This document shows, in pieces, positions 9,927 to 30,066 of a DNA stretch of 41,926 nt. The notes below the pieces were generated by a model. The model saw only the letters and a list, made by a program, of their open reading frames with translations, had not been told where the DNA came from and did not search any database. The position numbers and the translations under genes are program-made. Each line of letters starts with the position of its first letter. Positions within the stretch are counted from its first letter, which is position 1. Source of the stretch: a virus; the UHGV virus genome UHGV-0116964. One strand, given 5' to 3'.

Positions 9927-10010
9927 CCGGTTCAAAAATGGCGAAAGCCGCGGTGCTCGAACACCAACGGCTTTCAGGTGCAAAAACAGTGCGTAATTGC
10001 GGAGAACAGT

Positions 10011-11605: not shown

Positions 11606-11664
11606 CATGAACATAACAATCCGTGAGCAGGTGCTGGCAGCCCTGCGCAACAACCCAGGGTTGA

Positions 11665-11847: not shown

Positions 11848-11946
11848 TGTCCGAGTTTCAGAACATGGTGTAACAAATCCTGCTACTTCAATGACGTAGA
11901 TTCAAACCTGATATAATTAGGCTCTTCACAACACGAGGAGCCTAAA

Positions 11947-12183
11947 ATGCACCATTACATGATCCCTATCAACGGAACTGTTCACCTGATCAAGACTGAC
12001 TCTCTAATCCCTGAAGGGACTGAGTATAGCTTTGAAGGAGAAAGTCTAATCTGCGCTCATGCCACTTTTAAATCTGGGACGTATGGCTTCCTGATACCAA
12101 AGGGAAATCAGTTGAATAGAGAGCATGCGTTCTGGCATGTAAGTGGAATTCACCCTAATCCCCTGGGAATGGATAAATCGTAA
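11947..12183 (+). CDS. Hypothetical 78 aa protein (AT-rich insert between the two methyltransferase-tail repeats)
   Basis: Track ORF; no recognised domain. Confidence 0.4.
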   Translation: MHHYMIPINGTVHLIKTDSLIPEGTEYSFEGESLICAHATFKSGTYGFLIPKGNQLNREHAFWHVSGIHPNPLGMDKS

Positions 12184-12299
12184 TCCATAATATGCATGCC
12201 ATCGTCCTGAACATACGGTGGCATGCATCCGGCACTACAACAGAAACGTTAAAGTGCAAACAATACAATTCGAGCAATATTCAACCTGTCACAGATGGC

Positions 12300-12428
12300 G
12301 AATACCACCGCCATTTCGTGCATTCTGTGGTTTCTATTACCCATTGCGTTAATGCTGTCCAATCATCAGCTCGCTGAGGCGCTGGTTAGGGCTAACCTAC
12401 AGGAGCTTTGTCAGCAGAAACAAATAGC
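12300..12428 (+). pseudogene. Second, frameshifted copy of the methyltransferase C-terminal tail
   Basis: The 3' ~55 bp (...EALVRANLQELCQQKQIAA*) is a diverged direct repeat of 11790..11847; upstream HCVNAV resembles GNAV but in another frame. Confidence 0.35.
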
Positions 12429-12452
12429 GGCGTAATAAAACATCGCTAATTC

Positions 12453-12480
12453 AACCCGCTACGGCGGGTTTTCTTTTTTT
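12453..12480 (+). terminator. Intrinsic terminator
   Basis: AACCCGC-TACG-GCGGGTT hairpin followed by TTCTTTTTTT. Confidence 0.7.
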
Positions 12481-12542
12481 ACTACTGACAGAAAATTAAC
12501 AATTTGTGCTCTTAAAGCGTTGATCATTTCCGCGCATAGGTA

Positions 12543-12562
12543 TACTGTATAAAAACACAGTA
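12543..12562. promoter_or_regulatory. LexA (SOS) box TACTGTATAAAAACACAGTA
   Basis: CTGT-N8-ACAG; overlaps a candidate promoter (TTGATC ... TATACT) about 20 nt upstream of the dinI-like gene. Confidence 0.7.
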
Positions 12563-12580
12563 AATGCAATGGGGGCCATT

Positions 12581-12814
12581 ATGAAAGTTGAATTAACCAT
12601 TGATCGCATGAAAGAACTTCCTAAAGGCGCAGTACCAGCACTGGAGAAAGAACTGCTTAAGCGCCTGAATGATCACTATGACAATTGCAGGCTCACAATC
12701 CGCCGTGCCGGGGCCGATGGGTTAAGTGTTTTTGGTGGTGACAAGGACGATAAAAAGAAAATTGAATCAATCCTCCAGGATACCTGGGAAAGCGCTGACG
12801 ACTGGTTTTATTAG
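12581..12814 (+). CDS. dinI: DinI-like protein
   Basis: 77 aa from the ATG at 12581; C-terminal ESILQDTWESADDWF matches E. coli DinI (SEILQETWESADDWF); LexA box upstream. Confidence 0.85.
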   Translation: MKVELTIDRMKELPKGAVPALEKELLKRLNDHYDNCRLTIRRAGADGLSVFGGDKDDKKKIESILQDTWESADDWFY

Positions 12815-12931
12815 AATTGCGCTTAAGGCTGGCGCGCATTTTTCAGAATACCGCAATTTGCGTAACCCTCTGATGCTGCTGCCGACAATCTTTAATCGCG
12901 TCTGTTAGTCGCTCGAAGGGAGAACATAAAT

Positions 12932-13180
12932 GTGAGTGATTCAGCTTTGCAAACGTCAGAAGACAACTGGTATGACATTGTAAGAAGGTCTGACGGCTGC
13001 GTGGTGTTTAGCTTTCCTTCATCGGGCAGGCATCTAATTTATCGCGTCAATGGCATGGTTTCTATGCGGCCTTTGCTGGATGATGAAGAGGTCTTTACTC
13101 CTAATGGTTTTATGCAGTTTATTCACCGTCTCGGCTACCGGGTAACCCCACCTTCTGATAATATGAAATCAACGGTCTGA
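12932..13180 (+). CDS. Hypothetical protein
   Basis: Track ORF (GTG start); no recognised domain. Confidence 0.4.
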   Translation: MSDSALQTSEDNWYDIVRRSDGCVVFSFPSSGRHLIYRVNGMVSMRPLLDDEEVFTPNGFMQFIHRLGYRVTPPSDNMKSTV

Positions 13181-13214
13181 ACAACCGTAACCTACTGCGC
13201 CACGGAGAGAAACC

Positions 13215-13814
13215 ATGGCGCACGAACTACAACTCATCAAGCATTCCTCAGGAATCCTGATCCCCGCTACGCCGGAGACCAGTGATTTACTGCAATCAAA
13301 AATCAAACTCGGCTCCGTACTGGTGGCTGAGTTCCGGCAGGTACGCAACCCGGCCTTTCACCGTCGTTTCTTCGCGTTACTCAATCTCGGTTTCGAATAC
13401 TGGGAACCCACCGGCGGGGCAATCTCCTCCAACGAACGCAAGCTGGTAACCGGCTATGCCAAGTTCCTTGCCTCATTCGCGGGAAGTGAAGCAGCACTCC
13501 TGGATGCTGCTGAGCAATATCTGGACCGCATCGCCGATAAGCGTACTGGTAGCATCTGCGCCTGTAAGTCATTCGATGCATATCGTGCATGGGTCACTAT
13601 TGAGTCCGGCCATTACGACGCCATTCAGCTGCCTGACGGCACCCTCCGCAAACATCCCCGCAGTATCTCATTCGCAAATATGGATGAAACTGAGTTCCAG
13701 CAGCTGTACAAAGCCGCGCTCGATGTTCTGTGGCGATGGATACTCTCCCGATCATTTCGCAGTTGTGAAGAGGCAGAAAACGCCGCCGCCCAGCTGATGA
13801 GCTTTGCGGGGTGA
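13215..13814 (+). CDS. Conserved phage protein of unknown function (nin-region)
   Basis: 199 aa track ORF. Confidence 0.55.
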   Translation: MAHELQLIKHSSGILIPATPETSDLLQSKIKLGSVLVAEFRQVRNPAFHRRFFALLNLGFEYWEPTGGAISSNERKLVTGYAKFLASFAGSEAALLDAAEQYLDRIADKRTGSICACKSFDAYRAWVTIESGHYDAIQLPDGTLRKHPRSISFANMDETEFQQLYKAALDVLWRWILSRSFRSCEEAENAAAQLMSFAG

Positions 13815-14020
13815 TGGCGATGAAATTTTCCTGGTTCCACCATCACGAATGCACCACCGAACAGGCCGACGAGCTGGTGGAGAAATACCGGGCGCGCGGT
13901 GTAAAGACAGAGCGCAGCCTGAATCGCGACAACATCACCTGGACCGTCAGCGCGCAATTGCCGGAAGGCGATAACGCGCCTCGCCCGAGCCGGGTATGGC
14001 AAAGCAAGGCGTGGGGGTGA
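13811..14020 (+). CDS. Hypothetical small protein
   Basis: Track ORF, ATGA-coupled to the upstream gene. Confidence 0.4.
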   Translation: MMAMKFSWFHHHECTTEQADELVEKYRARGVKTERSLNRDNITWTVSAQLPEGDNAPRPSRVWQSKAWG

Positions 14021-14022
14021 GC

Positions 14023-14313
14023 ATGGCAAATTTACGCAAAGAGGCTCGTGGTCGTGATTGTCAGGTTCGAATTCCCGGCGTCTGCAACGGTAACCCGGAA
14101 ACGTCTGTACTGGCGCACATTCGCCTGGCCGGGTTATGTGGCACCGGAATCAAACCGCCTGATCTGATTGCCACCATTGCATGCTCTGCCTGTCACGACG
14201 AGATCGACCGCCGTACACATTTTGTCGATGCTGAGTATGCTAAAGAATGCGCGCTGGAAGGTATGGCGAGAACGCAGGTTATCTGGCTGAAAGAGGGGGT
14301 AATCAAGGCGTGA
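14023..14313 (+). CDS. YbcO-like cysteine-rich putative nuclease
   Basis: ~96 aa from the ATG at 14023 (GTGGGGG SD); [13 protein letters not shown]...[11 protein letters not shown] cysteine pattern; sits just before rusA as in DLP12. Confidence 0.6.
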
Positions 14314-14672
14314 ATACTTACAACATCACATTGCCCTGGCCGCCGAGCAATAACCGCTACTACCGCCATAATCGCGGGCGCACGCACATCAGCGCAGAAG
14401 GGCAGGCATACCGCGATAACGTCGCCCGAATCATTAAAAACGCAATGCTGGATATCGGTCTGGCTATGCCTGTGAAAATCCGCATTGAGTGCCACATGCC
14501 GGATCGCCGTCGCCGTGACCTGGATAATCTGCAAAAGGCCGCTTTTGACGCACTCACCAAAGCAGGTTTCTGGCTGGACGATGCTCAGGTCGTTGATTAT
14601 CGCGTTGTGAAGATGCCCGTTACCAAAGGTGGAAAGCTGGAACTGACAATCACCGGGCTGGAGGCCGTATGA
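14310..14672 (+). CDS. rusA: Holliday junction resolvase RusA
   Basis: GTG start; [35 protein letters not shown]...[28 protein letters not shown] is near-identical to E. coli RusA. Confidence 0.9.
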
Positions 14673-14805
14673 CATTTGAATCCTGTTTTTCCGATCACCT
14701 CCGCGTTCGCTGGCAGCGGCTTCGCTTATACCACTTTCCCGGCTCTGTGCTAACGGACTACCGGATACTGAAGAATTACGTGAAAACTTATGCTGGAGAA
14801 GCGCT

Positions 14806-15588
14806 ATGAACCTTGAAAACACAGTGAAATACCACTTCGCTAAATCCACACTGATTAGCGATTCTCCGCGCGCTACCGCCTCCGATTCACTGACCGGTAC
14901 CGACATAATGGCTGCCATGGGCATGACGCAGGAACGCGCCGCAATGGGTTACAGCGCCTTCCTCGGCAAGATGGGCATAAGCAATAACGACCGGGATCGG
15001 GCGATCGGTCTGCTGGCTGAGTACGCGATGACAAAATGCGACAAGGTTGCCGCACTGCGTAAGCTCGGTGCCGCGGTTAAACCTCAGGTGATGCACCAGT
15101 TGGCCACCTTCGCTTTTGAGGACTATTCCCGCAGCGCTGCCAGCGTGAAGCAGTGCGATTGTTGTGACGGTCAGGGCTTCATTGAGGCTGACGTGTTTAC
15201 CAATAAATTCCGTAAGCCAGAAGGGAAAATGACCGTGTCCGGGATGGTGAAGGTCAAAGAATCCATCAAAGTGCTATGCAAAAAGTGTAATGGCTCTGGT
15301 GTGGTTAGTGCTTCTTGCAGTGATTGCCATGGGCGCGGCAAGGCAGTGAACCAGGCTCTTACTGAGAAACAGGGCGTTCCTGTTCTGGCTGACTGTAAGC
15401 GCTGCGGAGGGCGTGGGTATGAACGACTTCCGTCGACTGAAGCCTATGCTGCTGTATGCCAGATTACTGACGCCATTAGCCTGGACACCTGGAAAAAGTC
15501 TGTTAAGCCATTCTACGACCTGCTGATCACGAAATTTGATATCGAAGAGTCCTGGGCCGAAAAACAGCTTAAGCAGATAACGCGGTAA
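14806..15588 (+). CDS. Late-gene antiterminator Q-like protein with four CxxCxGxG zinc-finger repeats
   Basis: 260 aa; position between rusA and the lysis genes; followed by a terminator about 100 nt downstream. Confidence 0.6.
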   Translation: MNLENTVKYHFAKSTLISDSPRATASDSLTGTDIMAAMGMTQERAAMGYSAFLGKMGISNNDRDRAIGLLAEYAMTKCDKVAALRKLGAAVKPQVMHQLATFAFEDYSRSAASVKQCDCCDGQGFIEADVFTNKFRKPEGKMTVSGMVKVKESIKVLCKKCNGSGVVSASCSDCHGRGKAVNQALTEKQGVPVLADCKRCGGRGYERLPSTEAYAAVCQITDAISLDTWKKSVKPFYDLLITKFDIEESWAEKQLKQITR

Positions 15589-15687
15589 CGCCTATAGCGA
15601 TAGCCTATGATTTTGTCTTGGGCTATTTACTTTTCCCGAATCTGTGTTAATTTTGTCCCAACGATGGGTTAATGCCTTCGTTTCAAG

Positions 15688-15715
15688 CCCTGCGGATAAC
15701 ACCGTGGGGTTTTTT
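15688..15715 (+). terminator. tR'-like intrinsic terminator downstream of Q
   Basis: CCCTGCGG-ATAACA-CCGTGGGG (two GU pairs) followed by TTTTTT. Confidence 0.5.
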
Positions 15716-15792
15716 GCGTTTCTGGAGACAGCAATACCAAGGTTCGAGACATTCAGGTAAAATTGATGCATTACAGGATGTGAGGTTGGGGA

Positions 15793-16362
15793 ATGAATAA
15801 TCTACCCGATGATTACTTTTTGGATGCGGACGACGAACTCGTTGCTTTTCTGGAGAAGCAGGGCGAGGATTGTATACGCGAAATTCACCAGTCCAACGCA
15901 CTAAACAAAGAAAATGGCCAGAAGTTATTGAGTATACTCATTGCTGGCGTGGGCTCGTCATTTTTGTTATTAACGCAACGTACAGGTTTTGATTACCTCA
16001 CCGCTGGAATGTCTGTTTTTTTAGTCTACTGGGCAATGTGTGCGGCTTATCTTGTTCGCTGCGTCCTCGTTGTAAGGTCACGAGCTCTCGTGTCATCGAC
16101 ACCCTATGCGCTTTACCATGATGGCTATAAAGGGTTTACTGAAGATGATTACACTGGTTTTGAGTCGAAAGGATTTTCAGGAAAGCGTTCAACATTGAAC
16201 GTCTTGCGGCGCTACCGGCTTGCGGATTTAACCAGAATGGCTGAAATGAGTAAAAAAGAGAATGCCAGAATAGGCCGAGAACTAGAAAGGGTAAGGATCG
16301 CTACAATCCTCACCCCTGTTTGTGCACTTGTAATCTCAGTACTTACTTACCTTTTTTTCTGA
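15793..16362 (+). CDS. Cargo membrane protein (3 predicted TM helices) at the Q-lysis junction
   Basis: 189 aa track ORF; AT-richer than neighbours; no recognised domain. Confidence 0.5.
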   Translation: MNNLPDDYFLDADDELVAFLEKQGEDCIREIHQSNALNKENGQKLLSILIAGVGSSFLLLTQRTGFDYLTAGMSVFLVYWAMCAAYLVRCVLVVRSRALVSSTPYALYHDGYKGFTEDDYTGFESKGFSGKRSTLNVLRRYRLADLTRMAEMSKKENARIGRELERVRIATILTPVCALVISVLTYLFF

Positions 16363-16492
16363 TGTTTTCAGCAGAATCGGCAACAAAGGTATAACCTGTC
16401 CTCAGATTTCTTTCGGCTGGCTGTGGAGCCGGTTTAGGCTGTGGTGCGGGTTGAGGCTTATTTTCTCCAGATGGTTTGTTTGATTCACTCAT
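16343..16492 (-). CDS. Small proline-rich ORF (49 aa), antisense, absent from the ORF track
   Basis: My translation: MSESNKPSGENKPQPAPQPKPAPQPAERNLRTGYTFVADSAENIRKKGK; GGAGAA SD 5 nt upstream; 3' end overlaps the 189 aa gene. Confidence 0.35.
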   Translation of the reverse strand: MSESNKPSGENKPQPAPQPKPAPQPAERNLRTGYTFVADSAENIRKKGK

Positions 16493-16584
16493 ATAATTCT
16501 CCATGTTTGATAGGGTTATTTTTGGCGATTTAACGATATCAAATACAGTGATTTGCTGCTAGAGCATGCACTTATCTATAACTC

Positions 16585-16610
16585 GCCCCGGCACCCGCTG
16601 GGGCTTTTTT
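16585..16610 (+). terminator. Intrinsic terminator
   Basis: GCCCCGG-CACCCG-CTGGGGC hairpin followed by TTTTTT. Confidence 0.55.
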
Positions 16611-16726
16611 ATTTCCGGCTCACGGTAATCATCCGCTACGTGCTTTGTTGATAAATCCAACCCGTGAAGCCTGAGCCTATTTCCCCTCATACCTGAGAGG
16701 ACTCACAGCAATTAAGAGGGGGCTAA

Positions 16727-17113
16727 ATGTCCGATCCAATTTCCGGTACTGGGCTGGCTGGTGGTGCCCTGACGGGTGCCAGTGTTTATGGACTGCTGAC
16801 CGGAACTGATTACGGCGTTGTATTTGGCGCATTTGCAGGGGCTGTATTCTACATAGCAACAGCAGCGGATCTGAGCGCATCGCGCCGACTGGCATATTTT
16901 ATCGTGTCGTATATTGCCGGGATCCTTTGCTCTGGGTTGGTTGGCTCCAAGCTGGCAAGCTTGACCGGATACAGTGATAAACCTCTGGATGCCATTGGTG
17001 CCGTAATCGTATCTGCTTTAGCCGTTAAGATCCTGACGTTCCTGAATAATCAGGATATCGGGTCGCTGGTGGCGCTCATAACGCGCCGGGGAGGTTCAGG
17101 TGGAGCTAAATGA
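16727..17113 (+). CDS. Holin (multi-TM, Gly/Ala-rich)
   Basis: 128 aa; AGAGGGGG SD; first gene of the lysis cassette. Confidence 0.6.
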   Translation: MSDPISGTGLAGGALTGASVYGLLTGTDYGVVFGAFAGAVFYIATAADLSASRRLAYFIVSYIAGILCSGLVGSKLASLTGYSDKPLDAIGAVIVSALAVKILTFLNNQDIGSLVALITRRGGSGGAK

Positions 17114-17381
17114 CCCGACAGCAACTATAAACGCGCTGTTATGTGCTTGTGTTGTTATTACTCTGATGTTTTATCGTCGTGGTGATTCGCGGCATCGTCC
17201 TTGGGTTTCACGTTTAGCCTGGCTGATTACTGTTACATACAGTGCTGTTCCGTTGGCCTATCTCTGTGGGATTTATCCCCATTCCTCATGGCCCATTATC
17301 GTGGCGAATACTATTTTTCTTTCCGTGCTGGTGGCCGTCAGAGGCAACGTTGCACGCCTGGTTGATCATCTGAGGCACTAA
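17100..17381 (+). CDS. Second holin-like / antiholin membrane protein
   Basis: 93 aa with 2-3 hydrophobic helices, between holin and endolysin. Confidence 0.5.
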   Translation: MELNDPTATINALLCACVVITLMFYRRGDSRHRPWVSRLAWLITVTYSAVPLAYLCGIYPHSSWPIIVANTIFLSVLVAVRGNVARLVDHLRH

Positions 17382-17995
17382 TGAACCAACAATTATTTCA
17401 AAAGGCGGCTGGTATCAGCGCCGGACTGGCTGTGCGCTGGTTTCAACCAGTAGATGCAGCGATGAAAGAATTCGGCATTACAGCACCCGCGGATCAGGCC
17501 ATGTTCATCGCTCAGGTAGGTCATGAGTCTGGTGGCTTTAGCGCTGTAGTTGAAAATTTGAACTACACACCATCTGCGCTGGTGGCGACGTTCGGAAAGA
17601 GGATCACACAGCAGCAGGCTGATGCCCTTGGCAGAACATCCGGACATGCAGCTCGTCAGGATGCTATTGCCAATCTGGTGTATAGCAACCGCCTGGGTAA
17701 CAAAGCGCCCGGCGACGGCTGGAAATATCGCGGCAGAGGGTTAATTCAAATCACTGGCCTCGACAATTATCGCACCTGCGGGGCTGCTCTGAAGTTAGAT
17801 TTGGTGACTTCACCTGAACAACTGGAACAGGAACTACAGGCTGCGCGCTCAGCTGCATGGTTCTACACCTCTAAAGGCTGCATGATCTACGGTGCCGATA
17901 TTAATCGTGTTACTCGCATCATTAACGGCGGTCTGAACGGTATTGAGGATCGTAAGGTCCGATACAACAAGGCGCGGGCGGCGCTGCTGGTATGA
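17381..17995 (+). CDS. Endolysin, glycoside hydrolase family 19-like
   Basis: 204 aa; FIAQVGHESGGF...YRGRGLIQITG...INGGLNG motifs typical of GH19 phage lysozymes. Confidence 0.8.
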   Translation: MNQQLFQKAAGISAGLAVRWFQPVDAAMKEFGITAPADQAMFIAQVGHESGGFSAVVENLNYTPSALVATFGKRITQQQADALGRTSGHAARQDAIANLVYSNRLGNKAPGDGWKYRGRGLIQITGLDNYRTCGAALKLDLVTSPEQLEQELQAARSAAWFYTSKGCMIYGADINRVTRIINGGLNGIEDRKVRYNKARAALLV

Positions 17996-18384
17996 AGATG
18001 AGTTATTGGGCGCTTATTTTAACGTTTATTGCTTGTATTGCTGGTGGTCTTGTCTGGTCAGCGAATCATTACCATGGAAAGTTTCTGGAGGAACAGCGGC
18101 GCGCTGACGATGCAGAACAGCGCGCTGATTCCTTTGAGACCATCACCGCGAATGTCCTGCGCACCGTAGCAATAACGAACATCATTCTGGAGACAAATCA
18201 ATATGCCAGGCAGCAGATCGCACTGGAGTCACAGAGAACCGAGAACGATATCAAGGCTGCTGTTGCGGATGATGATTGTGCTGTTCGTTTTGTGCCTTCT
18301 GGCGCAGTTAAGCGGCTGCACGACTACGCGAACGGTCTACGTTCCAGTTCCGGTGGTTCCGTTACCAGCCAACCTGACGGCTGA
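17992..18384 (+). CDS. Rz-like i-spanin
   Basis: 130 aa; N-terminal TM helix, then a charged coiled-coil region. Confidence 0.7.
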   Translation: MKMSYWALILTFIACIAGGLVWSANHYHGKFLEEQRRADDAEQRADSFETITANVLRTVAITNIILETNQYARQQIALESQRTENDIKAAVADDDCAVRFVPSGAVKRLHDYANGLRSSSGGSVTSQPDG

Positions 18385-18547
18385 AACACCCCAGCCAGAT
18401 TTACCCGATCCGTTTACGTGGGGAGCAAGCCTTAACCTGAATGTTGCGTTGTTGTCAGCGTTAGCACAGTGCAACAGGGATAAGGCTGATATCAGGACTT
18501 TCGAGAACAACAGGGCAGGACAAACAGATGGCACGATTAAACGTTGA
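18269..18547 (+). CDS. Rz1-like o-spanin lipoprotein, nested in Rz in another frame
   Basis: Internal ATG of track ORF 18203..18547; MMIVLFVLCLLAQLSGC lipobox; proline-rich. Confidence 0.7.
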   Translation: MMIVLFVLCLLAQLSGCTTTRTVYVPVPVVPLPANLTAETPQPDLPDPFTWGASLNLNVALLSALAQCNRDKADIRTFENNRAGQTDGTIKR

Positions 18548-18713
18548 AGTTATCCCACCAGACAGCGAGGTGCTGAACGGGATTTTTGCAGAGATTGAGC
18601 GCAAATATGCGCGTCAGCCGCTGACGCCAAAAGTAATTGATGAAATGCAACGCGAAGCGACGCGCCTTGTACGGCGAATGATAACCACAAAGGTTACGTT
18701 CGTCCGGGACTGA
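18528..18713 (+). CDS. Hypothetical small protein
   Basis: Track ORF; weak SD. Confidence 0.35.
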   Translation: MARLNVEVIPPDSEVLNGIFAEIERKYARQPLTPKVIDEMQREATRLVRRMITTKVTFVRD

Positions 18714-18767
18714 CATTACAGAAGCCCTTCACTGAGGGGCTTCGATAATGGAGCACTGGGATTATTC

Positions 18768-19388
18768 ATGAACAGACCACACCCACCAGCGCATTTTACG
18801 ATGCCACCTGACCCGAAGCCTTACATCAGCATAATGCCCGCCATTGACGTTGGCGAGTGGCTGAATCAGCACATCCTGAGCGATGAGGGTGACCTCTACA
18901 ACCCTGACCACCAGCATTTGCTTGAAGCGGATCTGTGCTTTCTCTGGGCGTCGAACACTTTCGAGAAGAAAGGGCGGTCCGTGCTGGGGCAGGCGGAAGA
19001 AGTGGCAATGCGGGCTGGAGGCTGGCAGAAAGCGCGGATGGAGCAGCAGATGTATGAATGGTTCGGCAGGGTGCCGCAGTTCATCATCACGCTGGCCGCC
19101 GATTACTGCTCGCAATGTTCCGATCTGGAATTCTGCGCGCTGATAGAGCACGAGCTTTATCACATCTGCCAAGCGACAGATGAATTTGGTGTGCCGAAGT
19201 TCACGCAGGAAGGGCAGCCAAAGCTGAAGCTGCGCGGCCATGACGTGGAAGAGTTTGTGGGCGTGGTTCGCCGTTACGGTGCGAGCCGTGATGTGCAGGA
19301 AATGATTGATGCGGCGAATCAGCCAGCGGAGGTTGCTCATCTCGATATTGCCAGAGCTTGCGGGACGTGCATGCTGCGACTGGCTTAA
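18768..19388 (+). CDS. Putative HExxH metallopeptidase-like phage protein
   Basis: 206 aa; IEHELYHI contains HExxH; cysteine pairs (CSQC, CGTC). Confidence 0.45.
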   Translation: MNRPHPPAHFTMPPDPKPYISIMPAIDVGEWLNQHILSDEGDLYNPDHQHLLEADLCFLWASNTFEKKGRSVLGQAEEVAMRAGGWQKARMEQQMYEWFGRVPQFIITLAADYCSQCSDLEFCALIEHELYHICQATDEFGVPKFTQEGQPKLKLRGHDVEEFVGVVRRYGASRDVQEMIDAANQPAEVAHLDIARACGTCMLRLA

Positions 19389-19418
19389 AACTGGACTGAA
19401 TAAGACGAATGGTGATTT

Positions 19419-19892
19419 ATGGCTGCATTAAAACCTGATGTGAAAGCCTTCATCATTCAGTCGCTTGCGTGCTATGACACGCCGACGCAGGTGGTTGAGG
19501 CTGTCCAAAAAGAATTCGGGATCAAGATCACCCGCCAGCAGGCTGAATCTCACGACCCCACGAAGGCCAGCGGTAAGACGCTCGCCAAAAAGTGGATCGA
19601 GATGTTCCACGCTACGCGCGAACGGTTCCTGACCGAAACCAGCGACATTCCGATCGCGAACAAATCCTATCGCCTCCGCGTGCTTGACCGCATGGCAACC
19701 AAAACCGAGGGGATGAAAAACTTCTCCCTGACGGCGCAGCTGATTGAACAGGCCGCGAAAGAGGTTGGCGACGCTTACACCAATAAGCTGAAGGTTGAAA
19801 GCACTGGCAAGGATGGCGGCCCGATCAAGACCGAGACGACCAACCTCACCGCAGATCAGGCCGCAGAGATTTACCGCAAGATGATGGGGTGA
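19419..19892 (+). CDS. Putative terminase small subunit
   Basis: 157 aa; immediately upstream of the large terminase; family not confirmed. Confidence 0.45.
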   Translation: MAALKPDVKAFIIQSLACYDTPTQVVEAVQKEFGIKITRQQAESHDPTKASGKTLAKKWIEMFHATRERFLTETSDIPIANKSYRLRVLDRMATKTEGMKNFSLTAQLIEQAAKEVGDAYTNKLKVESTGKDGGPIKTETTNLTADQAAEIYRKMMG

Positions 19893-19917
19893 TAGCCGCA
19901 TGTTGCGGCTATGGATT

Positions 19918-20130
19918 CTAGGCTTGTTTTGGTCGAGTAATACGGCCAAGAGCTTTAATTGCAGCGACTTTGACGTTGTGATTTAGATCCGAAGATAAAT
20001 CAAGTAAGCGATTTACATGAGCTGGCGTTGCTGAAGCACTCTCGCCGAGAGCATAAATTGCAGACAATTTTACTTCGTTGTTAAGGTCGTTGGTTAATTC
20101 CAACAACTTAGCGCTAACTGCTGGTGTCAT
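19918..20130 (-). CDS. Antisense HEAT-repeat mini-protein (~70 aa)
   Basis: Internal ATG of track ORF 19918..20178; perfect AGGAGG SD 4 nt upstream; two repeats of the form NxxVKxxAIxALGxI (PBS-lyase HEAT-like). Confidence 0.55.
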   Translation of the reverse strand: MTPAVSAKLLELTNDLNNEVKLSAIYALGESASATPAHVNRLLDLSSDLNHNVKVAAIKALGRITRPKQA

Positions 20131-20201
20131 AAAACCTCCTGTAATTGGTACATAAACAATATCAACTTTGTTACGCAAAAACTCAATGCCTGGAATTGTT
20201 T

Positions 20202-21824
20202 ATGCCTCTGCCGTTTGAATTCGATTTCAGAAACCCTGATTACCAGATGGTTTTTGAATGGCGGATGGAGCGCTTACAGCGCATTCGCCAGAACCCTGAA
20301 ATGCTGCCAGCACTAAAGCAGTTTTACCGCACCAACCCGGCACAGTTCATCATCGACTGGGGTATGACTACTGACCCGCGTAACATCGATTATGGCCTGC
20401 CGGTCACAATCCCTTTTCTGCTGTTCCCGAAACAGGAAGAGTGGATTCACTGGATCATTGAGCGGCGCGAACGACTGGAGAACGGCATCACCGAAAAGAG
20501 CCGCGAAATGGGGCTCAGTTGGACCGCGATCGGGCTGGCCTGCTCGCTTTGTCTCTTCAACAAAGAAATGGTTATCGGTTTCGGCTCCCGTAAAGAGGAA
20601 TACGTCGACAGCACCGGTGACCCGAAGGCGCTGTTCTGGAAGGCGCGAAAGTTCGTGGAAACACTGCCCATCGAGTTTCGTGGTTCGTGGGACGAGAAGA
20701 AGCATGCGCCGTATATGCGCGTTGAGTTTCCAGATACTGGCGCGGTTATCAAAGGCGAGGCTGGCGACAATATCGGACGTGGTGACCGTACCACGCTCTA
20801 CCTGGTGGATGAAGCTGCATTCCTCCAGCGTCCTCTGTTGATTGATGCGGCGCTGTCGCAAACCACCCGTTGCCGTATTGACCTGAGCTCGGTTAATGGC
20901 ATGGCGAACCCGTTCGCGCAGAAGCGCCACGGCGGAAAAATACCAGTATTCACGTTCCACTGGCGAGATGACCCGCGCAAGGATGAAGAGTGGTATCGCA
21001 GGGAGTGCGAGAAAATCGACAATCCGGTGGTGGTGGCGCAGGAACTTGACCTGAACTACAGCGCATCTGCGGAAGGCGTCCTGATCCCGTCCGACTGGGT
21101 ACAGGCTGCCGTCGACGCGCATATCAAACTTGGTATTCAGCCAACGGGCAAGCGACTGGGCGCGATGGACGTCGCCGACGAAGGCCGGGACAAAAATGCC
21201 TTTTCGACCCGTCACGGCTTCCTTCTGGAGAACGTGCGTGAATGGTCCGGCGTTGGCAGCGACATTTACCAGTCTGTTGAGAAGGTCTTCGGCTTTTGCG
21301 AACAGGACAACCTCGAAGAGTTTCGCTTCGACGAGGACGGCCTGGGTGCTGGCGTTCGCGGCGATGCGCGCGCCATCAACGAACTGCGTTACGCAGCGCG
21401 CCGACCGTCAATACTCGCCACACCGTTTCGTGGTAGCGGCGCGGTATTTGATCCGGACGATGAAGCGGTGCGCGGGGACAACGGACAGGCCGCACGCCTG
21501 AACAAGGACTTCTTCGCCAACGCCAAGGCCCAGAGCTGGTGGTGGCTACGCAAGCTTTTCCAGAACACCTATCGCGCCGTGGTTGAGGGCATGGCCTACA
21601 ACCCGGACGAAATCATCTCAATCAGCAGCGCCATGGCGAGCAAAGACAAACTCATCATTGAGCTGTCGCAGCCGACCTACTCCATTAATGGCGTGGGGAA
21701 AATCGTTGTTGATAAACAGCCTGATGGCACCAAGTCGCCGAACCTCGCCGACTCGGTGATGATCAGCTACGCGCCAATGAATTCAGCCCTGAACATCTGG
21801 GAGCTGCTAGGGAGACAGGCCTGA
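20202..21824 (+). CDS. Terminase large subunit
   Basis: Track ORF 20145..21824 (TTG); ATG at 20202; YLVDEAAF Walker-B-like and DVADEGRD nuclease-like motifs; precedes portal. Confidence 0.7.
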
Positions 21825-23293
21825 TGGCACGAAACAAACAAGCCCTGCGGCGAACGGCACAGGCCACCGCTGACGGCTACGAGAACTTCGTCGCCCGCGT
21901 TGGGATGCAGACGCCTAACCAGCATTCAGCATCGACCTACCGGGCGAACTTCACCAGCCGCAACCGCATGCTGGTGGAATGGTCATATCGCGGTTCGTGG
22001 GTTATCGGTGAAGCGGTCGACGCTATCCCGGACGATATGACCCGAAAGGGCATTCGCATCACTTCGGAGATTGACGCCAAAGACCGTGGCACCCTCGAAG
22101 CGCAACTGGATGAGTTGCAGATCTGGGATGCGCTGAACGACGTGCTGAAATGGTCGCGCCTCTACGGCGGCGCGGTCGGCTTCATCATGATCGAGGGGCA
22201 AGCACCAATGACCCCGCTGCGACTCGAAACCATTGGCGAGGGCAAGTTTAAGGGCATTCTCCCGCTCGACCGCTGGATGATTAACCCGGTGCTGACACGC
22301 CGCATTAAAGAGATGGGGCCGGACCTCGGCAAGCCTGAGTTTTACGACGTGGTGACCACCGCAACGGGCATTCCGGCCTGGCGCATCCATCACAGCCGCC
22401 TGATCCGCTTTGATGGCGTCACGCTGCCATTCCAGCAGAAGATGACCGAAAACGAATGGGGAATGTCGGTTGTAGAGCGTATCTGGGATCGGCTTACTGC
22501 GTTCGATAGCGCTACTGTCGGCGCGGCGCAGCTGGTCTATAAAGCGCATCTGCGTACCTATAGCGTGGAGAAGTTGCGCGAGCTTATCGCGCTTGGAGGC
22601 CCGGCGTTCGAAGCGTTGCTGAAGAACATCGACCTGATCCGCCAGTTCCAGAGCAATGAAGGTATGACGCTCATGGACTCGCGGGATAAGTTCGAAACCC
22701 ACCAGTACAGCTTTAGTGGTCTGGATGACATTCTTTCGCAGTTTGCTGAGCAGATCAGCGGTGCCGTTGGTATCCCGCTGGTACGCCTGTTCGGTCAATC
22801 CCCGAAAGGCTTCTCTACTGGTGATGCAGACCTCGCCAACTATTACGACCGGGTGAGCTCATTGCAGGAGCGCCGCTTACGACTGCCGATGCGCCGGATA
22901 CTGGACATTATGCACCGCTCGGAACTCGGAAAGCCGCTGCCGGACGATTTCACGTTTGAGTTTAACCCGCTATGGCAAATGTCAGACGTTGACCGATCAA
23001 CGGTGGCCGTAAACACCACCAACGCGATCAGTACCGCGCTGGGCGACGGATTGATGACGCGTAAGGCGGCGATGACCGACCTGCGCGAAAACTCTGACGT
23101 CACCGGCATCGGGGCATCCATTACCGACGAGGATATCGAGAATGCCGAAGACGAAGCGCCGCCAGGCATCGGCGAACTTGGCGACAAACCGCCAGAGCCG
23201 CCAGGCGGAGATCCGATATCGAACGAGCCTACGGCAGATAGCGCGGGCGGTCGGGGATATCGTAAATGGTCGCTACGATGGTTCAAACGATAG
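21824..23293 (+). CDS. Portal protein
   Basis: 489 aa; position after the terminase; acidic C-terminus. Confidence 0.7.
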   Translation: MARNKQALRRTAQATADGYENFVARVGMQTPNQHSASTYRANFTSRNRMLVEWSYRGSWVIGEAVDAIPDDMTRKGIRITSEIDAKDRGTLEAQLDELQIWDALNDVLKWSRLYGGAVGFIMIEGQAPMTPLRLETIGEGKFKGILPLDRWMINPVLTRRIKEMGPDLGKPEFYDVVTTATGIPAWRIHHSRLIRFDGVTLPFQQKMTENEWGMSVVERIWDRLTAFDSATVGAAQLVYKAHLRTYSVEKLRELIALGGPAFEALLKNIDLIRQFQSNEGMTLMDSRDKFETHQYSFSGLDDILSQFAEQISGAVGIPLVRLFGQSPKGFSTGDADLANYYDRVSSLQERRLRLPMRRILDIMHRSELGKPLPDDFTFEFNPLWQMSDVDRSTVAVNTTNAISTALGDGLMTRKAAMTDLRENSDVTGIGASITDEDIENAEDEAPPGIGELGDKPPEPPGGDPISNEPTADSAGGRGYRKWSLRWFKR

Positions 23294-23915
23294 CGTCACC
23301 GAAATAATGGATGCGCTGGAGCGCTACAGCGAAATCATCACCCCCTGGGCGACTAAGGTTGCTGAGAGCTTCACCGCCGACATTGCGCGCCAGAATGAAA
23401 AGCAGTGGCGTCAGCACAGCCGGAACATCAGCGCAGAGCTGCGCAACATGGTTGACCGCGCCCCGGTAGGCCAGGTGATGAAATCCATCGTTGCCGAGCA
23501 AATTAAGTACATTAAATCGCTGCCTCTTGAGGCCGCCGATCGGGTGTATGACATTCAGAACAAAGCCATCGAGGCTGTTGTGACTGGTGGCCGCGCTGAG
23601 CCATTCGCGAAAGAGATAGCTGCGTCCGGTGACGTGTCACGCTCGCGAGCGAACCTTATCGCCCGTACCGAGCTTGGACGCGCAACCGGCGCGCTCGATC
23701 AGGCGCGTGCGCTGTCAATCGGCTCGAATGGTTATATCTGGCGTACAGCCGAAGATGGCGACGTCCGGCATTCTCATCGGGAGATGGAAGGTAAGTTTGT
23801 CGAATGGGGCCGACCTCCAACGCTTGACGGTATGACCGGTCACGCTGGTGAGCTGCCGAACTGCCGCTGTTACAAAGAAATCGTCTTCCCCAACCCTCAT
23901 TCTTATCTCGCCTGA
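23142..23915 (+). CDS. Head morphogenesis protein (Mu F / SPP1 gp7 family)
   Basis: RTELGRATGALDQARALSIGSNGYIWRTAEDGDVRHSHREMEGKFVEWG motif; start may instead be the ATG at 23307, avoiding a 150-bp overlap with portal. Confidence 0.7.
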   Translation: MPKTKRRQASANLATNRQSRQAEIRYRTSLRQIARAVGDIVNGRYDGSNDSVTEIMDALERYSEIITPWATKVAESFTADIARQNEKQWRQHSRNISAELRNMVDRAPVGQVMKSIVAEQIKYIKSLPLEAADRVYDIQNKAIEAVVTGGRAEPFAKEIAASGDVSRSRANLIARTELGRATGALDQARALSIGSNGYIWRTAEDGDVRHSHREMEGKFVEWGRPPTLDGMTGHAGELPNCRCYKEIVFPNPHSYLA

Positions 23916-23929
23916 ATCGCAGGTAAACC

Positions 23930-25162
23930 ATGAAATATTTTTTCAATACCCGGCTGGGGGAAACCCGCTATCAGCTGGCTGACGGCTCGCTGTTGTGTAA
24001 AGACGTGCCGATAGGTCGAACGGGTAAGCAGCTCTACGGCGCTGCCGATCTGCCAAACCTCAAACCCGACAAGCTCGGTGAGATAGTCGTAACGCGTTCT
24101 CCTGAGCAGGTATTCCATCCGGCCACGCTCGCCTCATTCGAAGGGATGAGCATCACGATCCTGCATCCTGAAGATGAAAACGGGAATGTGCGGCTGGTAA
24201 ATCCCGAGAACTGGAAAGAGCTTGCGGTCGGGCATTTTCAGAACGTTCGGCGCGGGACTGGTGACCAGTCTGATTTGATGCTGGCAGACCTTATCGTCAA
24301 AGACGAAAGCGCCATTCAGCTTATCGAAGATGGTCTGCGCGAAGTGTCGTGCGGCTATGACGCGGAGTACGAGCAGACCGAGCCAGGTAAAGCCGAGCAG
24401 GTCGATATTACCGGAAACCATGTGGCTCTTGTCCCTAAAGGCAGAGCCGGAAATCGTTGTGCAATTGGAGACAGAGACACAATGGCAAATCAAAAGAAAA
24501 GCTGGTGGACCCGCATGCGCACGGCCATCAAAACGGGTGACGCTGACACCATGAACGAACTGCTGGACTCTGCGCCAGCGGCGGTAACGGGTGACGAAGG
24601 GGATCTGCCGAGCGGCGTTAACCTCAACATTAACCTTTCACCGCAGCAACCATTGCCGGACAAAAAGCCGGAAATGGGCGGAGATCCAACCGGCGACGGC
24701 GAGGACGATATCAAAACCTTGCTCAAAGCCCTGCTGGCTAAGCTCGAAGGAACTGCGACGGGCGATAACGACAATAAGCCTGACGAAAAAGACAAAAAAG
24801 ATCCGACCGGCGACGGCGAGGACGACGAAGAGGAAACCACGATTACCGGTGACTCTGCCTATCGTGCCGAGGTTATCGTCCCGGGTATCGATCTGAGCCG
24901 TAAGGTGAAACCGACCGCGTTCAAACGTGATGTGCTGGCTGCCGCTGACAAAACACTGGTTCGCCAGGTTGTCGGTGATGCGGATATCCGCAAATTGCCC
25001 AAGCAATCGGTAGATATGGCGTTTAACGCCGTGTCAGAGATTGCCAAAGGGCGAAACACCCGCAGCACCACGGGCGATGCACAACGTCCAAATATGGGCA
25101 TGACCAGCATCGCTTCCCTGAACAAACAAAACGCCGACTTCTGGTCTAACCGCAAAGGATAA
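23930..25162 (+). CDS. Scaffold/prohead-protease-like protein with acidic tandem repeats
   Basis: 410 aa; DPTGDGEDD peptide repeat; position between Mu F-like and capsid genes. Confidence 0.45.
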   Translation: MKYFFNTRLGETRYQLADGSLLCKDVPIGRTGKQLYGAADLPNLKPDKLGEIVVTRSPEQVFHPATLASFEGMSITILHPEDENGNVRLVNPENWKELAVGHFQNVRRGTGDQSDLMLADLIVKDESAIQLIEDGLREVSCGYDAEYEQTEPGKAEQVDITGNHVALVPKGRAGNRCAIGDRDTMANQKKSWWTRMRTAIKTGDADTMNELLDSAPAAVTGDEGDLPSGVNLNINLSPQQPLPDKKPEMGGDPTGDGEDDIKTLLKALLAKLEGTATGDNDNKPDEKDKKDPTGDGEDDEEETTITGDSAYRAEVIVPGIDLSRKVKPTAFKRDVLAAADKTLVRQVVGDADIRKLPKQSVDMAFNAVSEIAKGRNTRSTTGDAQRPNMGMTSIASLNKQNADFWSNRKG

Positions 25163-25166
25163 TCCA

Positions 25167-25670
25167 ATGACTGCATATCTGTACCGGATGCCTGTTGGCA
25201 TTGCCGGGGCTATCTCTCGCCCGCAGGACTTAACCGTCGAACCGGTGATCCTTAAATCCGCTAACGCCTTCGCTGCCTATGGTCTGGCTGGCAAATATGA
25301 CGCTGACGGCTTTTTCGTGCCGCTGGCGGACGGTGACACCGCCGACAAGGTGAAGGGGATCTACGTTCGTCCGTATCCGACCACATCGCAGCCAGACATG
25401 GTTCGCCAGGTGGGGACGGATAAGAACTTCCCGGGTGACGCCATGAAGCGTGGCTACATGACCGTTAATCTCGGTTCTGATTTTGATGCCAGCACCATCA
25501 AAAAAGGCGACCCGGTATACGTTGTCGTCTCCACTGATGAATCCATAAAAGTGCCGCTGGGCGGCTTCATGTCCACGTCCGTCAGTGGCAAAAACGTGGC
25601 GCTGACCAACGCCGAATTCACAGGGGCCGGTGACGCTAACGGCAATGTAGAAATCTCCTGGAAGATTTAA
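25167..25670 (+). CDS. Head structural / decoration-like protein
   Basis: 167 aa, immediately upstream of the capsid gene. Confidence 0.45.
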   Translation: MTAYLYRMPVGIAGAISRPQDLTVEPVILKSANAFAAYGLAGKYDADGFFVPLADGDTADKVKGIYVRPYPTTSQPDMVRQVGTDKNFPGDAMKRGYMTVNLGSDFDASTIKKGDPVYVVVSTDESIKVPLGGFMSTSVSGKNVALTNAEFTGAGDANGNVEISWKI

Positions 25671-25681
25671 GGAACAGACAA

Positions 25682-26623
25682 ATGATTACTTTTGATCAGG
25701 CAACCGTAGATAGCTCCGGTGCCTTTCTCATCGGGGAGCTGGAGCGACTCGACCAGACGCTGAACCTGCCTCTGGTGGGGTACACCTGGACCCGAGATAT
25801 TCAACTGCGTGAAGACGTGTCTATCGCAGATGACATTTCCAGCTGGACGAATACCAGCTTCGCCGCTGCGGGTACTGGTGCAAATCCGAATGGTAAAAAC
25901 TGGGTAGGCAAAGACTCCACCGCTATTGCTGGCGTGAACGTGGATATCAGCAAAGACGGCAATCCACTGAACCTCTGGGGTATGGAACTGGGCTGGACCG
26001 TTGTAGAGCTGGCAGCTGCTCAGCAGGTAGGCCGCCCGATTGATACCCAGAAGTACGACGGGATGCAGCTCAAATGGCAGATGGACAACGACGAGCAGGT
26101 TTACATCGGTGATGACGCACTCGGCCTGAAAGGTCTGGCAAACCTCGTCGGTGTGACGCTGAACAACGCGCCGAAGACCTGGGCGAACTCAACCAACGAC
26201 GAGATCCTCGATAGCGTGAACAGCATTCTGTCTAATGCCTGGGCAGCATCCGGTTATTCCATCGTGCCTTCTGATCTGCGCATTCCGCCAGAGCAGTATT
26301 CACTGCTGGCGAGCCGTAAGGTTTCCGAAGCGGGTAACCAGTCACTGCTGACCTATCTGGCTGTGAACACTATCGCTTTCCACCAGAACGGCGTTCCGCT
26401 TGAAATCAAAGCGGTCAAATGGCTGAAAGGGCGTGGGGTTGGCGGTAAAGACCGTATGATCGCCTACACCAACGACAAGAAATACGTGCGCTATCCGCTG
26501 GTGCCGTTGCAGAGCGTTCCTGTCCAGTATCGCGGTCTGTATCAGATTGCGACCTACTACGGCAAGCTCGGTGCGGTTGAGCCAGTGTACAAAGAAACCC
26601 TGTCCTACGTGGACGGTATCTGA
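25682..26623 (+). CDS. Major capsid protein
   Basis: 313 aa; position and size; no fold check possible. Confidence 0.6.
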   Translation: MITFDQATVDSSGAFLIGELERLDQTLNLPLVGYTWTRDIQLREDVSIADDISSWTNTSFAAAGTGANPNGKNWVGKDSTAIAGVNVDISKDGNPLNLWGMELGWTVVELAAAQQVGRPIDTQKYDGMQLKWQMDNDEQVYIGDDALGLKGLANLVGVTLNNAPKTWANSTNDEILDSVNSILSNAWAASGYSIVPSDLRIPPEQYSLLASRKVSEAGNQSLLTYLAVNTIAFHQNGVPLEIKAVKWLKGRGVGGKDRMIAYTNDKKYVRYPLVPLQSVPVQYRGLYQIATYYGKLGAVEPVYKETLSYVDGI

Positions 26624-26664
26624 TAACCAGAACGGCCCCGAAAGGGGCCAGAAGGGAACTGAAA

Positions 26665-27054
26665 ATGGCGAAAGAAAAGCTGGTTACCATCCATGTTCAC
26701 ACCCCGTTTACGCTGACGCTCGGCGATCAGTCAAAAAGGGAGTTTGGCCGGGGACGGCATAACGTACCGGAAGAGGTCGCGTCGCACTGGTTCACCCAGG
26801 CGCACTCCGAGCTTTCCGAAAGCGTGATTAGCGACACCGATGATCTGCAACCCATTATCGACAGCCTGCAAGCTCAGATTGCCGACAAAGATAAGCAGAT
26901 TATCGATAAAGATCAGTTGATTGCCGATCTGCGAGAAGCGCTGCTCAAGCTGCAAGAGCAGAACGACAGCCTGCAAGCGCAGATTGCTGCCGCCCAGACT
27001 GGCGGTAATGGGGCGAAAGATGCCAAAGAATCAAAGCCTGCCAACAGTAAGTGA
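26665..27054 (+). CDS. Coiled-coil head-associated protein
   Basis: 129 aa; heptad-like [32 protein letters not shown]. Confidence 0.45.
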
Positions 27055-27427
27055 TTTTCGGCGCGACTTTCCACAGTTTGCTGACCCTGCCAAATATCCC
27101 GAAGCACAAATCCAGTTTCGTCTGAATCTGGCTGATGTGCTGCTGAGCGAAAACGTCACCGGCAAAGAGTTGTTTCCGTACTTTGTCGAGTTGTTCGTGG
27201 CTCACTACATGACGCTCTGGGCGGCAGATAGCCGGGCAATGCTCGTCGGCGGCCCGGGTGGCTCAACCAATGGTGTTCAGTCCTCCAAGTCCGTTGACAA
27301 GGTAAGCGTCAGCTATGACACCAGCGCGACGCTAAACCCTGACGCAGGCTTCTGGAATAACACCCGATATGGCGCTGAATTTTATCAGCTGATCACGATG
27401 TTCGGTGCGGGCGGTCGCCAGCTATGA
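27020..27427 (+). CDS. Head-tail connector / neck protein (putative)
   Basis: Internal ATG of track ORF 26921..27427. Confidence 0.4.
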
Positions 27428-27978
27428 GTTTCAAAAGTGGTGTAACAACGAGGGTTGATAACGCTCAGGCCATTCTGGATGCGCTCCGGTCGCTAACCAA
27501 AAAGGATGTGCTGGTGGGCATCCCGGAAGAAGACAGCGAGCGTGAGGATGTTCCGTTTGGTAATGCCGGGATCGGTTACGTCAACGAATACGGCTCACCA
27601 GCGCAAAACATACCCCCACGCCCGCACCTGATCCCCGGCGTTAAATCCGTAGAGGAACAGACGGTGCCGCAGCTCAAAGCAGCGGCGCAGGCTGCGCTTG
27701 ATGGAAATGCGGCGGGTGCGGAAAGAGCGCTTAACCGCGCCGGAACGCTGGCCGCGAATGGTGTCAGGCGTTACATGACCATTACCGGCTTTACACCGCT
27801 TGCTGATAGCACCGTTGAAGCACGCGCACGCCGTGGGCGCAAAGGGGCAAAAGAGGAACTTGCGCGGCGCGCTGCTGGTGAGTCTCCTGGAACCGATCTG
27901 GTGAAACCGCTAATCGACACCGGGCAATATCGCAGAGCTATTACCCATATTGTGAGGGATAAAGATGCCGACTCTTGA
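27424..27978 (+). CDS. Neck / head completion protein (putative)
   Basis: 184 aa; ATGA-coupled. Confidence 0.45.
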
Positions 27979-28892: not shown

Positions 28893-28895
28893 ACT

Positions 28896-30056: not shown

Positions 30057-30066
30057 GGAGCGATAA

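Follow-up and report, generated by a model that had tools for sequence, protein, structure and literature searches.

Locus and gene model

The virus genome UHGV-0116964, analysed here as one stretch of 41,926 nucleotides (hereafter the window), carries between its genes for the probable small (TerS) and the large terminase (TerL) a cassette with a single small gene, which runs against the late operon and encodes a protein of two HEAT repeats. We refer to this gene, its product and its relatives as mini-HEAT. The locus comprises the following features.

19893..20201, no strand assigned: mini-HEAT cassette, 309 bp that replace a 2-nt TerS-TerL spacer (net indel of 307 bp)
19918..20130, minus strand: mini-HEAT gene, 70 codons plus TAG, two HEAT repeats (four helices), based on the open reading frame (ORF), Pfam, AlphaFold2 and the ratio of nonsynonymous to synonymous substitutions (dN/dS)
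20135..20140, minus strand: Shine-Dalgarno sequence AGGAGG, 4 nt before the ATG, read from the sequence and kept in other cassettes
20158..20163, minus strand: promoter-like -10 hexamer GATATT, based on cross-lineage conservation
20181..20186, minus strand: promoter-like -35 hexamer TTGAGT, 15 nt from the TerL start on the opposite strand, based on cross-lineage conservation
19892..19912, no strand given: 9-bp GC-rich hairpin between the convergent TerS and mini-HEAT stop codons, based on RNA folding; probable terminator of the mini-HEAT transcript
19419..19892, plus strand: probable small terminase (DUF2280, Pfam 9e-50), 157 residues, convergent with the mini-HEAT gene
20202..21824, plus strand: large terminase (phrog_2, 3e-31), 540 residues, divergent from the mini-HEAT gene and followed by the portal gene

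The mini-HEAT gene reads on the minus strand from an ATG at 20130-20128 to a TAG at 19920-19918, and its product of 70 residues, MTPAVSAKLLELTNDLNNEVKLSAIYALGESASATPAHVNRLLDLSSDLNHNVKVAAIKALGRITRPKQA, starts with MTPAVSAKLL and ends with GRITRPKQA. An earlier note, made from the sequence alone, had placed an ORF of about 70 codons with a perfect AGGAGG between the terminase genes and against the late operon. Both details are borne out: the frame runs from 20130 to 19918, and AGGAGG lies at 20140-20135 of the minus strand, 4 nt before the ATG. The gap of about 250 bp given in that note was too short, as the TerS stop codon ends at 19892 and the TerL ATG begins at 20202, which leaves 309 bp. The start codons of mini-HEAT and TerL are 71 nt apart.

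An alternative form of 86 residues from a TTG at 20178 appears in the ORF list, and public annotation is split on the start codon (86 residues from the TTG or 70 residues from the ATG; RefSeq WP_136769304.1, window 20131-20178), with the Prokaryotic Genome Annotation Pipeline (PGAP) adopting the TTG in some genomes. We rejected the longer form: its extension is unconserved, the related contig L102 has a stop four codons 5' of its ATG, and the TTG is further disfavoured by its position upstream of the predicted -10 box. Judged by these sequence signals, the 70-residue form is the real gene product, favoured by the conserved AGGAGG and by the position of the promoter.

Insertion at the terminase junction

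We found that Citrobacter phage Omnitron joins TerS and TerL as GGGGTGA-TC-ATGCC, with 2 bp where the window has 309 bp; the check for presence or absence in related phages proposed in the earlier note thus yielded a phage with TGA-TC-ATG and no cassette. The two phages are 97.5% identical up to the TerS stop and 98.9% identical from the TerL start onward, and synonymous divergence (pS) between their TerL genes is 0.03, yet Omnitron is devoid of the cassette. High identity to Omnitron (97-99%, cassette excepted) covers window positions 18714-31628 with the packaging and head genes, stretches of 88-97% identity follow beyond 33 kb, and the early half of the window (1-18713) gave no megablast match to Omnitron. 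The window appears to be a mosaic lambdoid genome, and its near-equal length with Omnitron (41,926 and 41,923 bp) looks coincidental because the early halves are unrelated at the megablast level.

Of the 80 IMG/VR loci whose TerL is closest to that of the window (protein identity of 95.5% or more), 75 show TerS stop, 2 nt and TerL ATG at this junction, 2 a 4-nt gap, 4 a HEAT gene and one, contig L023, a different insert. The latter (IMGVR_UViG_3300045988_069121, TerL 99% identical) carries at L023:2325-2500 a 176-bp insert on the late-operon strand of the same junction, with a terminal hairpin, a T-run and a full-length match to the small RNA STnc100 that stays below threshold (31.8 bits against a gathering score of 47, E = 1.9e-5). 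The TerS-TerL junction therefore takes more than one kind of cargo. Complete Escherichia coli genomes have this TerL at 369 places, 5 of which carry the cassette. An identical cassette was found in E. coli chromosomes, among them those of AR_0118 (NZ_CP020048, 404851-405159) and LR-33.

The guanine-cytosine (GC) content of the cassette is 41.1%, against 55.3% in TerS and 56.7% in TerL, which ranks among the lowest 3% of 309-nt windows and makes the cassette the only low-GC island in the packaging and head region from about 16.6 to 35.5 kb. Lower synonymous divergence was observed for the HEAT gene than for the adjacent TerL, with pS values of 0.08 and 0.24 in Enterobacter kobei, 0.13 and 0.29 in contig L107, and 0.16 and 0.42 in contig L098, and one HEAT allele (98.6-100% identical) adjoins three TerS types. 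The cassette appears to be mobile relative to its flanks. An origin as a transposon or miniature inverted-repeat transposable element was rejected, as neither target-site duplications nor terminal inverted repeats are present at the cassette boundaries. Spread by homologous recombination in the conserved 3' end of TerS and 5' end of TerL would fit better: with a conserved TerL, and with TerS types alike in their last 24-40 residues only, recombination could move the cassette in and out.

Predicted expression signals

The window cassette was aligned with those of E. kobei, Salmonella and Yersinia (protein identities of 97%, 62% and 61%) and of two viral contigs (56% and 50%), and the alignment shows a common order of TTGAnn, an unrelated 17-nt spacer, (G/C)ATATT, about 20 nt, AGGAGG, 4-5 nt and ATG. 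Despite differing spacers, TTGAnn-N17-(G/C)ATATT is kept in the window, Salmonella, Yersinia, L102 and L112; TTGA is invariant at the -35-like position in four lineages, and near matches occur in L113 (TTGTTC) and L101 (CAAATT). We call this element promoter-like solely by its conservation across lineages. The AGGAGG, in the form of AAGGAGG or CAGGAGG, is likewise kept in the cassettes of Salmonella, Yersinia, L101 and L102.

When the minus strand was folded as RNA, the hairpin at 19892-19912 showed a 9-bp GC stem (-13.3 kcal/mol, z = -4.6). The same hairpin follows the HEAT stop codon in Salmonella, a different GC hairpin takes its place in Yersinia, and most other lineages have a stem and a T-run directly 3' of the HEAT stop. 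A search of positions 19800-20300 against Rfam found nothing at gathering score, the single match reaching 18.1 bits against 34.1 (E = 0.35).

Coding evidence and predicted structure

Mini-HEAT is under purifying selection. Substitution counts by the Nei-Gojobori method gave dN/dS values of 0.04-0.36 for close pairs of mini-HEAT genes; distant pairs have reached saturation at synonymous sites (pS 0.63-0.87), with a nonsynonymous divergence (pN) of 0.26-0.45. In L102, pN amounts to 0.35 for mini-HEAT and 0.05 for TerL. The exact window protein occurs on 515 contigs of public assemblies, and every source names it only as a 'HEAT repeat domain-containing protein'.

Pfam recognizes HEAT_2 (PF13646; 35.1 bits, cut-off 27.7) and HEAT (PF02985; 31 bits, cut-off 23.5) in the window protein. 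Two repeats of the NxxVKxxAIxALGxI type, as claimed in the earlier note, are indeed present (N17-x-x-V-K-x-x-A-I-x-A-L-G and N50-x-x-V-K-x-x-A-I-x-A-L-G-x-I); the PBS-lyase sub-type proposed there did not pass the Pfam threshold, as HEAT_PBS (PF03130) scores 15.6 bits, below its cut-off of 20.9. Structure prediction, which the note had suggested as a check, was done with AlphaFold2 on five family sequences and gave a confident model (predicted local distance difference test, pLDDT, 92; predicted template modelling score, pTM, 0.80) with helices at residues 3-12, 18-29, 36-45 and 51-65. The best matches in the Protein Data Bank (PDB) are engineered alphaRep binders (template modelling score 0.78-0.83, root-mean-square deviation 1.3-2.3 A, 24-32% identity), and the family profile matches alphaRep sequences with E = 9e-21. 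Fold searches returned generic HEAT, ARM and alphaRep structures from the PDB, none at E <= 1e-3, and nothing useful from a viral structure library.

AlphaReps bind their targets through the concave side, at randomised positions 18, 19, 22, 23, 26 and 30 of each 31-residue repeat, and an affinity of 3.7 nM is attained by an alphaRep that consists of an N-cap and a single internal repeat (PMC3754942). We mapped conservation over 23 non-redundant family members (36-97% identical) and found Y26 in 21, K59 in 22, and E30, R63 and R66 in all 23. Y26, E30, K59 and R63 are the equivalents of alphaRep positions 26 and 30, to which R66 adds a further invariant residue; residues 18, 19, 51 and 52 are variable among members. 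A conserved protein-binding patch would be the simplest reading of these five residues in the predicted structure. The isoelectric point (pI) of members ranges from 6.1 to 10.0 (window protein 9.3), which makes general nucleic-acid binding doubtful. The protein-binding inhibitor suggested in the earlier note is plausible on the modelled fold, because the closest structures are alphaRep binders and the equivalent binding positions are near-invariant.

Family searches assigned no specific function. Among PHROGs, the best match was phrog_3609, a family of unknown function (E = 1.1e-3, residues 1-21 only); PADLOC-DB gave noise and one local match to the HEAT-ARM_XIII repeat (18 bits, E = 9e-5); and NCBIfam gave no specific family, with P0005 and P0006 scoring 13-20 bits against PRK09687, NblB and CpcF at cut-offs of 220-300. 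Our literature searches on prophage, terminase, moron, anti-defense and IncI1 topics found no paper on the mini-HEAT family, and those on genes between TerS and TerL found nothing relevant.

Family members in prophages and plasmids

A word-indexed search retrieved seven relatives only, and scans of viral, genome and metagenome contigs added many more. The family comprises more than 20 distinct intact variants, with homologs down to 36% identity; prophage relatives are 36-62% identical to the window protein. Two arrangements were observed. In the first, the gene separates TerS from TerL and lies at a distance of 70-74 nt from the start of the latter; this applies to the window, E. kobei, Salmonella, Yersinia, L101, L102, L107 and L112-L114, with TerS of DUF2280 type in some and of Terminase_2 or other types in the rest. 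In the second, the gene is located directly upstream of TerS and divergent from it, in the interval that follows the lysis genes; examples are Enterobacter soli, Citrobacter sedlakii, C. pasteurii, Tatumella and several contigs from metagenomes, with TerS of Terminase_2 or Sf6_terminase type and TerL of Terminase_6 or other types. The Citrobacter prophages L108 and L109 hold an additional ORF between TerS and mini-HEAT (L108:2859-3329, plus strand, 156 residues; L109:2893-3159, plus strand, 88 residues), which has the orientation of mini-HEAT and no Pfam match and forms a two-gene antisense block with it. A truncated copy of 42 residues with a frameshift after residue 30 (P0007, …AIYALGECFSNASSCKSLT) was seen on one contig of a Logan assembly; it is a decayed allele or else the result of a faulty assembly.

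A paralog of 67-69 residues (42% identical) is present in 1,215 PLSDB plasmids, which are mostly of IncI type and of which 1,201 are conjugative, and on at least 1,000 contigs. It is located between excA, to which it is convergent, and the region of pndA/hok, dqlB and trbA. Two inspected plasmid loci were typed as IncI-gamma/K1, one metagenome locus has an ExcA of IncI1 type, and ExcA-type proteins occur in 2,032 plasmids. On the opposite strand directly upstream of the plasmid copy, a short frame reads MALTYKQE...stop, and the Citrobacter prophages have LVLTDKLEMCCCEYLI there; in the E. soli prophage, an intact TerS starts at the same place with MALTDKQEMFCREYLID. These relics, at L140:3400-3474 (an IncI-type plasmid contig), L108:3370-3432 and approximately L109:3370-3440, comprise the first 8-16 codons of a Terminase_2 gene in decayed form. 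They indicate that the plasmid gene derives from a phage cassette that stood head-to-head with a Terminase_2 TerS.

By the searches above, the family is confined to mobile elements of Enterobacterales, i.e. prophages and IncI-type conjugative plasmids. A profile search of the whole library gave 15,259 matches, mostly long HEAT arrays, and was unhelpful for finding small relatives. Pfam identified NACHT-HEAT, TIR-NACHT-HEAT and Ank/U-box-HEAT proteins among seven of its top matches; a specific kinship with NACHT-HEAT-type proteins was rejected, and we take the similarity as a common repeat type instead.

Flanking terminase genes and phage background

The product of 19419-19892 belongs to phrog_546 ('unknown function'). 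It is probably the small terminase, because it lies directly 5' of TerL and its C-terminus matches annotated small terminases. TerS proteins of differing families and lengths (157-residue DUF2280, about 190-210 residues, 340-residue Terminase_2) have only their last 24-40 residues in common, at 62-78% identity. This tail, at 19773-19892 in the window (TerS residues 119-158), is also found in L002, L003, L007, L057 and L099, paired with the same TerL type, and looks like a swappable TerL-docking tail. TerL, labelled 'TerL protein' by PGAP in E. coli, starts with MPLPFEFDF in common with relatives that have the tight TerS-TerL junction. After the insertion, the window TerL start (20187-20204) is preceded by a weak Shine-Dalgarno sequence (GGA) and that of the Salmonella cassette by none; L102 and L101 have AAGGAGGG and AAGGTGG. 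The cassette-free TGA-TC-ATG junction looks like a case of translational coupling, which the cassette would abolish.

Elsewhere in the window we found the gene set of a temperate lambdoid phage, with an integrase (4-1242), RecT, RecE, O, P and a Q antiterminator (14806-15588). The immunity and replication region also encodes a protein with a YdaT_toxin domain (9387-9926, 1.9e-25), whose neighbours are O, P and Rac-like RecE/RecT. Further islands with a GC content of at most 42% (window mean 52%) lie at 7331-9359, 12301-12779, 16231-16579 and 35501-36269 and may hold accessory genes or regulatory regions.

Discussion

We are nearly certain that these 309 bp constitute a moron, i.e. an autonomous accessory cassette in the late operon of a temperate lambdoid phage. 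The independently expressed cargo envisaged in the earlier note is supported by a near-identical phage without the stretch, by foreign GC content, by conserved signals and by purifying selection. That this moron is expressed on its own and also encodes a small stand-alone binder, whose partner is something other than the cognate terminase, is in our view the probable explanation as a whole, in which the model-based binder part by itself stands at about even chances.

According to this explanation, the gene opposes the Q-dependent late operon and a putative sigma-70-type promoter of its own would permit transcription from the repressed prophage and in early infection; Q-modified late polymerase would, as lambda biology suggests, read through the hairpin to reach TerL. 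The protein could clamp its partner via the concave face of the two B-helices (Tyr26, Glu30, Lys59, Arg63 and Arg66). This partner would be common to cells carrying the prophage and cells carrying the plasmid, for example a protein of the host or of a rival element, or a component of a defence system, and it is presumably not terminase-specific, because a 42% identical paralog with the same invariant residues is found on plasmids without a terminase. Benefits to the carriage or competition of the element, such as anti-defence, exclusion or host modulation, might result.

Several findings weigh against the explanation of an independently expressed binder. Searches with blastn and tblastn for the cassette and its protein found no member in 50,697 GenBank phage records. 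A sigma-70 consensus scan of 19400-20700 gave no promoter at the threshold of 9 of 12, the promoter-like element scoring 8 of 12, and the T-run of the window hairpin is poor, so that termination is not assured. The invariant residues could instead help a unit of two repeats that has no caps to fold or to associate with itself. Finally, all prophage copies with readable flanks are antisense to the late operon and adjoin a terminase gene, a constancy that a pure 'random cargo' model would not predict.

Mini-HEAT might thus have a terminase-linked role and tune or chaperone the neighbouring terminase, or inhibit that of competing phages or satellites while being linked to a resistant allele. Its position beside TerS or TerL, usually 17-76 nt from the start codon, holds across the TerS families DUF2280, Terminase_2 and Sf6_terminase and several TerL types, and the TerS 5' relic beside the plasmid and Citrobacter copies indicates that the adjacency is old. 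However, the putative binding residues are invariant next to terminases of different families, IncI-type plasmids retain the gene without any terminase, and, being antisense, it is uncoupled from late expression, the phase in which terminase is made; moreover, the zone between lysis and terminase genes is a usual place for morons such as lambda bor. We regard a terminase-linked role as unlikely. A nucleic-acid-binding HEAT-like protein of the AlkD/AlkC class that acts near the packaging site would agree with the invariant K59, R63 and R66, the basic C-terminus of many members, the pI of 9.3 in the window and the vicinity of the terminase genes, where pac or cos sites are usually located. This seems improbable to us, given the pI range of the family, the invariant Glu30 and Tyr26 within the same patch, the very small DNA surface that two repeats provide, and closest structures that are protein binders.

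The insertion could also act in cis, with an antisense promoter or RNA that lowers or times TerL relative to TerS and a peptide of secondary importance. It breaks the TGA-TC-ATG junction, the TerL Shine-Dalgarno sequence is weak or absent in the window and Salmonella, and every prophage lineage has the putative promoter head-to-head with a terminase gene. Purifying selection on the protein, surface residues that stay invariant at 36% overall identity, the strong conserved AGGAGG and the persistence of the gene on terminase-free plasmids argue against it, and we consider a cis-acting role very unlikely. That the ORF is spurious or in decay and the spacer non-coding, to which the single truncated, frameshifted copy of 42 residues (P0007) could point, has a negligible probability in view of dN/dS well below 1, more than 20 intact variants, 515 contigs and a confident fold.

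Returning to the independently expressed binder, we also considered a more far-reaching scenario, to which we assign a low probability: The mini-HEAT family may consist of mobile-element conflict factors that were born at phage terminase loci and later captured by IncI-type plasmids, which spread the gene as a near-backbone gene. The two-repeat binder would then neutralise some conserved component of conflicts between phage and host or between phages. Candidate targets would be a packaging protein of a rival or the repeat-array sensor of an NLR-like defence protein, the latter because the repeat type of the family occurs in TIR-NACHT-HEAT and NACHT-HEAT proteins.

Significance

The architecture of the cassette is that of a textbook moron, and its payload has no family in PHROG, NCBIfam or PADLOC and is named in RefSeq after its repeat only. 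If it is a prophage-expressed binder, mini-HEAT would be among the smallest natural stand-alone HEAT-repeat proteins and a natural counterpart of alphaRep binders. The family is uncharacterised yet very common, and many plasmids with the paralog carry resistance genes, e.g. blaCMY-42. Knowledge of the partner might bring to light a function of the host or of its defence that temperate phages and IncI-type plasmids alike need to control, and the junction with and without the 307 bp offers a natural isogenic control. The TerS relic documents the move of a cassette from phage to conjugative plasmid with a piece of a terminase gene dragged along. The constant position at the terminase, the relic-marked transfer to plasmids and the natural minimal alphaRep-like protein make this family worth following.

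Comparison with known systems

With Ocr, ArdA, anti-CRISPRs and anti-Avs proteins, which are small single-domain inhibitors of mobile elements, mini-HEAT has a functional analogy only: it is small and single-domain, has a predicted promoter of its own, occurs sporadically and evolves faster than its structural neighbours, but is unrelated to them in sequence and fold. The plasmid protein WP_000062603.1 (69 residues) resembles the window protein in its two repeats, its length and the motifs AIYALGE and AIKALGR..R, and its gene is likewise antisense within a long operon region. It differs from the window protein in its N-terminal helix (MPPAIANTFLFEMM), and the neighbours of its gene are pndA/hok, dqlB and trbA instead of terminases.

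By motif, the repeats are of the same sub-type as those of PBS-lyase-type HEAT proteins (CpcE/F, NblB and E. coli YibA, i.e. PRK09687), and P0005 and P0006 match PRK09687, NblB and CpcF weakly (E 4e-4 to 5e-2). These proteins, however, have 200-285 residues and at least six repeats, the scores are far below the cut-offs (e.g. 19.7 against 275 bits), and the mini-HEAT locus has no lyase context. Judged by sequence, mini-HEAT thus carries the repeat motif of the PBS-lyase sub-type and is not a member of the lyase families. AlphaRep proteins (PDB 4JW2, 4JW3, 3LTJ and 4ZV6) share with mini-HEAT the 31-residue helix-turn-helix repeat (..VRxxAAxALGxI..). AlphaReps are engineered and capped at the N- and C-termini, whereas mini-HEAT is natural and uncapped, and positions 26 and 30, which vary in alphaRep, are fixed as Y/E and K/R in mini-HEAT.

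The closest parallel in genome organization is provided by phage morons, reportedly described by Juhala et al. and Hendrix et al. in 2000 as 'more DNA' units of the HK97/HK022 type. Lambda bor and lom are morons, and bor lies antisense near the lysis-terminase boundary. Like morons, the cassette consists of a single small gene with a promoter and a terminator of its own, both predicted here, and it separates two genes that adjoin each other in a close relative. Its base composition is foreign, and its orientation and putative promoter would suit expression from a prophage. In contrast to known morons, its payload is a two-repeat HEAT protein, its insertion splits a seemingly coupled TerS-TerL pair, and the family holds its terminase-side position across unrelated terminases.

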